The position numbers were made by a program. Shown piece after piece: positions 9,001 through 12,000 of a stretch of DNA of 16,631 nucleotides. How positions within the stretch are numbered: the first letter of the stretch is position 1; every line of letters starts with the position of its first letter. This DNA comes from a virus. Lineage: Duplodnaviria > Heunggongvirae > Uroviricota > Caudoviricetes. Where the stretch lies: IMG/VR virus record IMGVR_UViG_2778261064_000024; one strand, 5' to 3'.

Positions 9001-12000
9001 GATGTAGATGTAAAACTTTTCGCCTTTGAAAATTTTTTGTCATCAGAAGGGCTTATGAACTCATCTTTTTTGTAGGGAACCGCTAATGCTGCATCACGTC
9101 TGCGAGGCAGCTTGCTTACTTCCTCGCGCTTTTTCATGATCAGTTATCCTTTAATAACCTATACAGTTTTGTAGGGGTACATCCTGAGGATATTGTTAAG
9201 TTCGTAGCACGCCTTTTCCGCCCATCATCGTATAAACGAAAACCAGTAGTAGACGAATTTTCTGCGTCAAAAACTATAGACAGTATAGCGTCCCCAGACT
9301 TTTTTTGCCATTCGCATGTGCCGTTAGTTGGTTTCGTCATCTGTAGACGCCAGTCAAGAACGCCATCACTTATAGCTGAGAGATCGTTTAGTACATCTAG
9401 TACGGATTGATATCTTTCATTTGGATCTACATGAATGCATTTGTTCACTATTGTTATTAATTTTTTATGTATATGGGGAGGATACTCTTTTAATGGATAG
9501 CAGCCATTAATTATCGACTCTCTGAGTTGTTCAATCGTGCTAAATGCAGATCTTTCTCTTTCAAAATTATCATGTCCAACACACATTCTATATATGGTTA
9601 ATCCTGCCTGATATATGTCATATGTGAAATTATAATCATTTGTTGATAAAGAAAAATATTCCGGTGGCACATGAAAATGATATCCAAACTCAGGCGCAGC
9701 TCTCGATTCCTCATTGACTAACTGAGATAATCCAAAGTCAGATAGCATGGCCTCATTTCTGTTTGATATCATAATGTTATTAGGTTTTATATCAAAATGC
9801 ATAAGACCTTTTGAGTGTATATGATAAAGTCCACTTAAAAATTGAATGGAATACCGTATTATCTCCCTGCTTGTAAGATTATTTTTTTTTCATTAATTGG
9901 TTTAGCGAACCATTATGATAAAATGGCATGGCTATATAGATATTGCTCTCACATTGAGCAGCATACTGAACTTGCACAATATTTGGATGTGCATGTTTAT
10001 AGAGAAGCCTTGCTTCATTAAAGTAGTCGTCGTGGTTAGTGTTTTCTTTTTTTTCTATTTCTTTAATCACCAAGTCATGAGCTAGGTGTCTGTCATGAGC
10101 CAGATATACTTTTGAAAAACAACCCTGTTCTTCTAGATCACTAATCCATTCGAATTCTACATCAGCTCTTTTGTATGGAGTTAGCATCCCCTTACCTCCG
10201 CAGATAGAGCAGCCAAAACAGCTTCATTTGTTTCAGTTGTAAAACCAGAATTATCGATTCCATTTATATTGCGGTGTGACTTCAATATTTCTTTATACTC
10301 GATCTCTGTTAGGTTCAATGATGATTTCATGCCAGATTTTCTAATAGTGTAATATTTTCTTACATCACTGCTTGAAAATGCTTCTTGAATAACAGCTTCT
10401 ATATAAAGGCGGTCAATGCTAAGATTATCAGAGTTTGATTCAGTAACGCGTATGGCAGCTAATTCAACATTATATAAATTAAGAATGTCGAGGATGTTAT
10501 TTCTCACATACTTTAATTTTTCTGGTGTGTCTAAGGTCGAAGGTATTTTAATAACATCAACACATTTGAGTGCAGACTCATTAGTGCAATATACAACAAA
10601 AGATGTAACTTTGGGCGCCGCTCTAACACCTAGTATTCTCATTTTTTATATCCTATTTTAGAATCAGGCCGCATCTCTGCGACCATCCATCATCCAAACG
10701 TCTCTTCACTCATCCGAAGAAGCAGCAATCCGGGTCAGCACGCACAAGCTCAAGCGCATCAGTCAGCGAAAGTTCAGTACTGTACTGATGCCATTTCATA
10801 TCCTTCCGCATCCAATAGATTTTCCATCTATCCAGAGAACGTATGTACTTGATTCTTGCTGATGGCAGGATGTTTGTTTCACCTGGGTTGCCCTGCCACA
10901 CGGGGCGCTGTTCGCCGATATCTATCGTTTGGTCATTGATGCTATAAACAATATCCAGTTCATTGCGGATATGTTCAGGCGGCCTTATGCTTTCAATGAA
11001 TTGGTGAACTTCTTTTTTGACCGCTTGATATTCAAGGTCAGTGAACGCCATCTATCCTCCTCACCCAAACGTTTCTTCTGGCCACTGGTTACCAGCTATG
11101 TGACGATGAAGTCACGAACTTTTCAGCCACTCCCTTGCCTCGATGTCATCCAGATGGCGAGATTGCTTCAGAATACCAGCTACATACTCCACCTTTGCTA
11201 CTTGATGATAAGGCAACGTTATAGGCCTGTGATCCTGGTTAATGCTTGTAAATTGGTATTCTCCATCTCTGTCATAGCCAAGAACCTTAATCATGTTGTG
11301 TCCTTCAACGGTTCTGACAAACACCTCATCACCCGGGAATACTTTGGTGTTAGGCTCAATGAGTACATATTCTCCTGATTTTATTCTGGGCCACATGCTG
11401 TCTCCTTTCACACGAAGGCCAAAGGCATCTGGATCATCGCTATAAATTTTGAGCCACCCATCGCGCTCTTCGGTCATCTCGATGGCACCATCAACACCAA
11501 GAATTGCCTCACCAACCACGCGCACTAACCCTTTTTTTAATTTGCCAACAAATGAAAGAGTATCTTCATCATTCGCTCCATTTAACGAAGTGCCGTGCTG
11601 AAGCCAAACAACATCAACGTTTAGAAATTTCGCAAGCGCATTCATTTTTTCCTGACGCGGTAAAGACTCAGCATTAAACCATTTGCTAACGCCTTTGGAC
11701 GAAAGAGAAAGGGCACGGGCTATAGCCATTCCCCTACCATGTTCATCAAGACCAGCTTCTTTACAGGCTTGCGCTAGCCGCTGGGCGAATTCTTTGCGCA
11801 CTTTTTCATTCTGAACCATGAGTACGATACTAAAGCACTTGCAAAAACTTTCAGTTCAATCATAATGCGTACTGAAAGTACGAAAAAGGATATCCCTATG
11901 CAAAATCTTGATGAGCCGATTAAAGGTGTCGGCATCCCTGAAGTTGCGAAGGCTTGTGGAGTTAGCGAAAGGGCTGTCTATAAGTGGCTCAAAAACGGCT

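Follow-up and report, generated by a model that had tools for sequence, protein, structure and literature searches.

The stretch of DNA considered here, the 16,631-nucleotide virus record IMGVR_UViG_2778261064_000024 (hereafter the window), carries a protein kinase gene, stk, and several small genes between its repressor gene cI and the gene for the antiterminator N. A preliminary description had proposed these genes as a candidate defence or abortive-infection module expressed in lysogens, which raises the question of whether the cassette is new, which of its genes belong together and whether this copy could work. We consider it likely that the cassette is a lysogen-expressed operon of the type known from phage 933W, read from the maintenance promoter pRM, with an AT-rich functional core of L0083, stk and L0081, that the DUF3024 gene (L0084) is a separate element, and that the copy in the window is broken. 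Our own analysis contributes the sequence identity, gene order, frameshift, fold, active-site substitutions and gene linkage, while the expression in lysogens and the abortive role of Stk are taken from the literature.

The first part of the answer lies in the relationship to 933W. A 3-kb region of the window is 99.4% identical (3001 nucleotides) to 933W (AF125520) and to HM208303, and the same 99.4% is found over this region for Phi24B, Stx2 phage 86, Min27 and many more Shiga toxin (Stx) phages. A prophage of Escherichia coli ES5 is 100% identical except for one base, the sole difference over 2.2 kb being one A in a run of eight. The annotation of 933W gives pM/pRM, cI, L0084, L0083, stk, L0081 and tM as one unit from pRM to tM, and the layout in Phi24B is the same. 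Positions 8953–11819 of the window (minus strand) can be recognised as the 933W immunity-region operon, and the cassette as one that is already known, not new. Taken as a whole, the window corresponds to the left arm of a lambdoid prophage of non-Stx type, in which int, exo/bet/gam, a RecE-family gene and kil are followed by N, the immunity region, cro, cII and a replication module.

All genes of the operon lie on the minus strand. The predicted position of pRM (11827–11854) is transferred from the 933W feature 'pM' (1547–1574). The first gene is cI (11112–11819), annotated as such in 933W and Phi24B, which encodes a repressor of 235 residues with HTH_3 and Peptidase_S24 domains in Pfam, and this protein is 100% identical to the 933W-type cI found in many loci. 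Downstream follow L0084 (10710–11051; DUF3024, 113 residues), L0083 (10181–10642; a RuvC-fold protein of 153 residues), stk (9140–10187; a gene for a Hanks-type Ser/Thr/Tyr kinase) and L0081 (8973–9137), which is annotated in 933W, matches phrog_4063 at 2.5e-39 and encodes a basic protein of 54 residues with an isoelectric point of 10.0. The operon ends at the intrinsic terminator tM (8953–8974), found by a terminator scan and annotated as tM or tRM in 933W and Phi24B, which consists of an 8-bp GC-rich stem and a T run 3' of L0081; beyond it on the minus strand side lies N (8100–8483). This order bears out the placing of the cassette in the slot equivalent to rexAB of lambda. The three co-oriented genes reported downstream of cI, encoding 113 residues, 153 residues and the kinase, are also there, but the fourth, L0081, had been missed, and the terminator said to close the cassette sits after this gene, about 165 nucleotides beyond the end given at 9140.

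Each of the four open reading frames (ORFs) downstream of cI matches a separate PHROG family. Because of these families, and because dozens of phage records and some 190 complete genomes of E. coli match the region at 99.4–100% identity, the four can be taken as genuine, conserved genes and not chance ORFs. NCBIfam holds no family for L0081, L0083 or DUF3024, and an Rfam scan of the window gave no match. The GC content is 0.348 for L0083, 0.354 for stk and 0.376 for L0081, compared with 0.459 for DUF3024, 0.453 for cI and 0.471 for the window, so the AT-rich block consists of this trio and the DUF3024 gene lies outside it; the AT-richness of the 153-residue gene and the kinase relative to their flanks had been correctly observed before. 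The stop codon of L0083 overlaps the start codon of stk (ATGCTAA), with GGAGG 7–11 nucleotides upstream, which makes the translational coupling that had been stated for this pair plausible. L0081 starts 2 nucleotides past the kinase stop codon.

The kinase gene in the window is not intact. Alignment with 933W and ES5 places a run of nine A residues (A9) at 9882–9890 of the minus strand where intact copies have eight (A8). The extra A shifts the frame after codon 100, a stop follows residue 102, and the 348-residue frame present in 933W and ES5 is split into ORFs of 102 residues (10187–9879) and 220 residues (9802–9140). Both fragments match Pkinase (PF00069), at 47.6 and 75.1 bits against a gathering cutoff of 31.7, over profile positions 9–91 and 120–253. 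The 'VIKE' motif of the N-lobe, with the ATP-binding Lys, is on the 102-residue fragment and the 'HFDIKPNN' and 'SDFG' motifs of the C-lobe are on the 220-residue fragment, so that the two lobes are joined in one polypeptide only in A8 copies. As the extra A cuts Stk after its N-lobe, the copy is predicted to be non-functional, and we infer that it probably has no activity, or at most a weak leak through slippage, since nine A residues in a row could allow some restoration of the frame.

Similar lesions occur in other copies. The A9 allele is found in 3 of the 224 complete E. coli genomes that have the 71-nucleotide stretch around it, and in one IMG/VR contig (locus L029). Two of the three genomes were inspected (from Korea and Brazil); stk is annotated as 'frameshifted' by PGAP in both, and since they have a different DUF3024 allele and a truncated N gene they represent another prophage background. 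A second A8 tract in the N-lobe of stk (10047–10054, minus strand) is intact in the window, but is A7 in IMG/VR locus L036, and locus L022 has a one-nucleotide deletion in an A run adjoining this tract. IS1 is inserted within the cassette in two genomes (E. coli SHP24 and SMN013SH2), and in SHP24, the one inspected, it lies inside L0083 (1259–2490 of that locus) and leaves stk and L0081 intact. The cassette has evidently been inactivated repeatedly, mostly through homopolymer slippage. The two A8 tracts in the N-lobe may form a hotspot at which mutation switches a costly kinase on and off, or could be the sites of repeated homopolymer sequencing error.

To see which genes belong together it is necessary to look beyond 933W-type phages. 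L0083 has homologues of 42–93% identity in Terasakiella as well as across Enterobacterales. In Klebsiella, Proteus and Terasakiella, at loci with neither DUF3024 nor the 933W cI, the next gene after L0083 is always a kinase of about 345–350 residues, overlapping it or within a few bases. A scan of IMG/VR viral contigs gave 66 loci, of which we treated as informative those with a complete L0083 homologue and enough downstream DNA. At every informative locus, and at the loci from genomes, a Stk homologue starts within about 0–35 nucleotides, across L0083 identities that range from 100% to 36%. The identities of the two proteins fall together (L0083/Stk, in %: 100/100, 99/97, 85/81, 70/57, 59/52, 47/47, 39/39 and 36/39). 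The same arrangement adjoins a recombinase gene in the Bacillus phage SPbetaL7, with 35% identity for L0083 and 40% for the kinase, the latter aligning to residue 329 of 348 and so into the C-terminal region of Stk. In the phage database 41 records have L0083 and 41 have a Stk match covering at least 80% of the protein; other phage kinases match over the kinase domain only, at no more than 29% identity, and L0083 was not near any of the three that were checked.

A profile search with L0083 against 1.84 billion representative proteins returned 454 clusters with E ≤ 1e-3, of which 254 reach E ≤ 1e-10; almost all are stand-alone proteins of 150–165 residues. Downstream of two distant representatives (E about 1e-22) there is again a kinase, of 351–354 residues, with a small ORF after it. 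A CI-type repressor, with a helix-turn-helix (HTH) domain plus S24 or HTH/Phage_CI_repr and unrelated in sequence to the 933W cI, lies directly upstream in the same orientation in 8 of 10 diverse loci, and this repeated position after a repressor fits expression from pRM in lysogens. The module adjoins an integrase in Terasakiella, SPbeta and one metagenomic contig, and in Erwinia aphidicola it is found in the DinI/tail-fibre slot. The association of L0083, kinase and small gene spans phyla, being found in Enterobacterales, Terasakiella, Bacillus SPbeta phages and metagenomes.

A small third gene is conserved as well. At all 24 diverse loci an ORF of 49–64 residues starts between 6 nucleotides before and 24 nucleotides after the kinase stop codon, and the gene calls at other loci give a third ORF of 47–64 residues. 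The closer of these proteins share 'PRRRDAA.A.PY' and a C-terminal 'KYFK[IL]', and the distant ones are still basic and of this size, with an aromatic patch at the C-terminus. With its own PHROG family and a counterpart at each of the 24 loci, L0081 is thus a genuine gene and a member of the module. To judge from these loci, L0083, stk and L0081 are inherited as a unit in which the genes are tightly packed or overlapping.

The nature of L0083 bears directly on what such a unit could do. The match of L0083 to the RuvC/RNase H-like fold is strong; its score against Pfam RuvC (PF02075) is 14.2 bits, under the gathering cutoff of 22.2, and sequence searches of the Protein Data Bank (PDB) with L0083 and with its 25-sequence profile found no RuvC match. 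In the alignments 'ILGVR7' of L0083 stands opposite 'ILGID7' of E. coli RuvC, and the alignment ends one residue before R65, opposite E66. Pfam and an hhalign comparison with E. coli RuvC agree on this register. Of 126 full-length representatives of the L0083 family, 125 have Arg at position 7 and all 126 have Arg or Lys at position 65, while Arg47, Glu68, Arg78, Glu82, Glu87 and Glu140 are nearly invariant; Glu140 may correspond to RuvC Asp141. The set of catalytic acidic residues of E. coli RuvC (Asp7, Glu66, Asp138 and Asp141) is not retained in L0083. The family is best described, on these alignments, as conserved RuvC-fold proteins with a remodelled and partly basic 'active site'. As the metal-binding Asp and Glu are replaced by Arg, L0083 is probably not a nuclease; it would probably not be a metal-dependent resolvase but a binding or regulatory subunit. 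The matches that PDB sequence searches did give for L0083, its profile and DUF3024 were at chance level (MinE 0.4, ALIX 0.32, AvrPto 0.073), and that to AvrPto, a kinase binder, was dropped as it was unsupported by the fold search.

DUF3024 behaves differently from the trio. The protein matches PF11225 at 108.7 bits (cutoff 24.9) over residues 4–113 of 113 and the PADLOC model PDC-S43 at 7.2e-42 over residues 1–113, the PDC entries being single-gene candidates only. We found no mention of DUF3024 in the searchable literature. It is present in 144 phage records, only about 40 of which have L0083 and stk. In Rahnella it stands alone, adjoining DinI genes and a tail fibre gene, and in Yersinia ruckeri it precedes a gene for a P63C-domain protein. 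In Salmonella phage SE1 (2245–4554 of that locus) an unrelated repressor is followed by DUF3024 and then by a 357-residue ParA/AAA_31-like ATPase in place of the kinase trio. It seems that the slot after the repressor takes up varying cargo and that DUF3024 is often the first gene in it. This distribution marks DUF3024 as a facultative gene that moves independently and has come to share a slot with the trio, and the proteins of 113 and 153 residues, which the preliminary description had treated as partners of the kinase, have to be separated, with only L0083 tied to the kinase at every informative locus.

The activity of an intact Stk is known from published work on the 933W prophage. Passages in PMC3681748, PMC6356687 and PMC8008677, each citing Friedman et al. 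2011, describe Stk as a eukaryote-like tyrosine kinase and, in its intact form, as an abortive-infection kinase against phage HK97. The account in PMC3681748 is that Stk has little or no activity in uninfected cells and that infection by HK97 activates it, resulting in exclusion. The link between a kinase in this slot and exclusion in Stx phages that had been drawn for the window agrees with these passages, but the module, being that of 933W, is not new and in the window its kinase is frameshifted. According to Hsu et al. 2020, a 933W lysogen also excludes lambda, by about 10^6-fold; the effect does not depend on cI immunity and spares lambda hybrids that have a different immunity region, and the role of Stk in it is not stated.

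Expression in lysogens has been studied in Phi24B. Using two-dimensional polyacrylamide gel electrophoresis and mass spectrometry of Phi24B lysogens, Riley et al. 2012 (PMC3342100) identified the proteins P2 (predicted 17,096 Da) and P3 (13,472 Da), both encoded downstream of cI, with transcripts restricted to stable lysogens at levels of about 10-fold (L0083) and about 10^5-fold (DUF3024) that of cI. The calculated mass of L0083 is exactly 17,096 Da, matching P2; P3, of 13.5 kDa, is the DUF3024 protein, whose allele in the window, at 13,460 Da, shares 98% identity with that of Phi24B. Given these protein and transcript data and the match in mass, the lysogen expression test that had been proposed for the cassette has largely been done already. 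No promoter is annotated between cI and DUF3024 or L0083, and a scan for consensus internal promoters aimed at explaining the higher transcript levels of these genes gave 10 sites against 9.5 expected, which is chance level (for example 11233–11205 within cI).

Taken together with the published behaviour of Stk, these properties suggest how the operon might work. In a lysogen the pRM transcript would yield cI, L0084, L0083, stk and L0081 and end at tM. Stk would be silent until an infecting phage, HK97 in the published case, switched it on and the infection aborted, and we infer that L0083 and L0081 could be regulatory or sensing subunits that keep the kinase silent, couple it to the phage signal, or both. 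From the copy in the window the A9 run would allow only a Stk cut after the N-lobe, inactive or weakly leaky. The order of genes in the RefSeq record of HK97 would make gp41 an Erf-like annealing protein. Escape mutations of HK97 are said to map to gene 41, and if this held a recombination trigger would suit a RuvC-like sensor, which is a lead and not evidence.

More tentatively, and with rather less than even confidence, we propose that the 'single-gene' Stk is a three-component system found from Enterobacterales to the Bacillus SPbeta phages. It would be made up of a disabled RuvC-fold protein of the L0083 family (about 450 clusters at 50% identity), a Stk-type kinase with its own C-terminal region and a basic protein of 47–64 residues. 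The RuvC-like subunit would be the sensor or regulator, responding for example to phage recombination proteins or branched DNA, that switches the kinase on, and the two A8 tracts would be a mutational on/off switch. We found no description of the three-gene architecture or of the loss of RuvC catalytic residues in the searchable literature. If the trio does work together it would be a tractable example of a defence kinase under the control of a pseudo-nuclease, and would explain why a prophage kinase is silent until a specific phage infects.

Several points weigh against a trio that works as one system and is broken in the window. Strict synteny demonstrates co-inheritance and not physical or functional interaction, and if stk alone suffices for HK97 exclusion then L0083 and L0081 would be modulators and not required parts. 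The loss of L0083 through IS1 in SHP24 appears to be tolerated, though a polar effect of IS1 on stk is possible. The register that places R7 and R65 in the active site comes from weak alignments (Pfam E 0.042, hhalign E 0.063), yet both agree. Finally, the extra A in the window could be a homopolymer sequencing or assembly error, in which case the window copy would really be intact. Long homopolymers are error-prone on several sequencing platforms and a single A in a run is all that separates the window from ES5 over 2.2 kb, but the same A9 is found in three complete RefSeq genomes, two of them seen to be of another prophage background, and in an IMG/VR contig, and other copies have different one-nucleotide changes in the N-lobe A runs, as expected of real slippage, though repeated errors could also yield this pattern. 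We regard a sequencing error as doubtful while giving it some weight. Many database records name L0083 'RuvC-like Holliday junction resolvase' or 'res', and it could be a working phage enzyme that merely lies beside the kinase. This we consider highly unlikely and have rejected, given the Arg or Lys at the positions of catalytic Asp7 and Glu66 in almost all or all of the 126 representatives, the Pfam score under the cutoff, the production of the protein in stable lysogens and not on induction (PMC3342100), and the position directly upstream of a Stk-type kinase at every informative locus, for which a recombination enzyme has no reason.

The composition and the purpose of the unit can also be read in other ways. 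All four genes downstream of cI, DUF3024 included, might form one system, as DUF3024 is found directly upstream of L0083 and stk in three divergent settings: the 933W type, the DinI/tail-fibre slot of Erwinia aphidicola (DUF3024 59% and L0083 86% identity) and the IMG/VR loci L055–L059 and L063 (DUF3024 37–40% and L0083 about 70%). This makes a loose functional link possible. A single four-gene system is nevertheless unlikely, as most of the diverse L0083-stk loci have no DUF3024 (L003–L011, L047–L054 and L060–L083), about 100 phage records, Salmonella SE1, Rahnella and Yersinia ruckeri have DUF3024 without the kinase, its GC content resembles that of cI and not that of the AT-rich trio, and PADLOC lists it as a single-gene candidate. 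The main role of the trio could instead be that of a toxin-antitoxin or addiction module by which the prophage is stabilised, with the kinase as toxin, L0083 or L0081 as antidote and exclusion as a side effect. A tight three-gene operon with a potentially lethal kinase that reportedly shows little or no activity in uninfected cells (in the passage of PMC3681748), a universal small third ORF and the recurrent loss seen in the stk frameshifts at two A tracts and in IS1 within L0083 would all suit such a module, the recurrent loss being what a costly gene would show. We nonetheless judge an addiction module quite unlikely, because the published activation by an infecting phage, as those passages describe it, is abortive-infection behaviour, because a viable copy with IS1 in L0083 and an intact stk argues against L0083 as an essential antidote, unless IS1 is polar on stk, and because PADLOC and Pfam scans gave no antitoxin signature. 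A lysogen-expressed operon with L0083, stk and L0081 at its core remains our preferred reading, and the locus in the window, being a long-known operon with a broken kinase, does not qualify as a new or active defence locus.

Two neighbouring features of the window, outside the operon, can be recorded here. Directly after N, in place of L0079 of 933W, lies an ORF of 238 residues (7383–8099, minus strand) that belongs to phrog_2539, a family of unknown function, and whose central Cys-rich segment has weak similarity to the endonuclease VII, HNH and Lar-like families (E 1e-8 to 1e-10). Further to the left, at about 1725–5560, a lambda Red set (exo, bet and gam) is followed directly by a gene for a RecE-family exonuclease of 690 residues, so that two types of recombination exonuclease are adjacent; these coordinates were placed by correspondence with a comparison locus (2025–5858).

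How the operon compares with known systems depends on which part of it is considered. With the operons of 933W and Phi24B it shares the gene set, the gene order, the 99.4% nucleotide identity and the promoter and terminator annotation, and it differs in the A9 run for A8 that splits stk into ORFs of 102 and 220 residues. The carrier also differs, in that it is a non-Stx lambdoid prophage which has int, exo/bet/gam and a RecE-family gene and whose replication module is a different one. Compared with the RuvC resolvase, L0083 has 12–15% identity, is expressed in lysogens and is always paired with a kinase. RexA and RexB of lambda occupy the same slot between cI and N/pL, are co-oriented with cI, end at a terminator and are transcribed together with the repressor in lysogens, and the passage on Rex in PMC6356687 describes it as an abortive-infection function. 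The effector here is by contrast a protein kinase, and no Rex family appears among the Pfam, PHROG and PADLOC matches of the four proteins. In HK97 the equivalent slot between cI and N holds two genes of unknown function, gp48 and gp49 (3410–4314 of the locus examined). The Hex protein of phage 434 (PMC3564112) is likewise made in lysogens from the pRM transcript together with the repressor and is a precedent for repressor-adjacent genes that act on induction or exclusion, which makes it a possible model for DUF3024, although the Hex ORF overlaps the repressor gene while DUF3024 is a separate gene downstream, and no homology between them came to light, with no search aimed at it.

The kinase itself is comparable to the single-gene kinase defences, PD-T4-6 of PADLOC and DefenseFinder and the staphylococcal Stk2, and the Hanks-type domain is common to the PD-T4-6 models and Stk. 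In PADLOC the kinase domain of the intact ES5 Stk matches the PD-T4-6 model PDLC04042 at 1e-37 over residues 20–273, a similarity at the level of the kinase domain only, and none of the NCBIfam kinase equivalogs reached its cutoff (MAD6 122 bits against 460, PknB 122 against 450, PglW 45 against 990). In a recent survey of O157:H7 the systems specific to one strain include PD-T4-6 and PDC-S43, the calls expected from Stk and DUF3024. Our comparison suggests that labels such as these, with Stk as a stand-alone PD-T4-6 kinase and L0083 as a Holliday-junction resolvase, are misleading. Unlike PD-T4-6, the Stk type has a C-terminal region of its own of about 75 residues beyond the part that matches (about 20–273), and in place of a stand-alone gene its kinases are flanked by L0083 and a small ORF at every locus examined.

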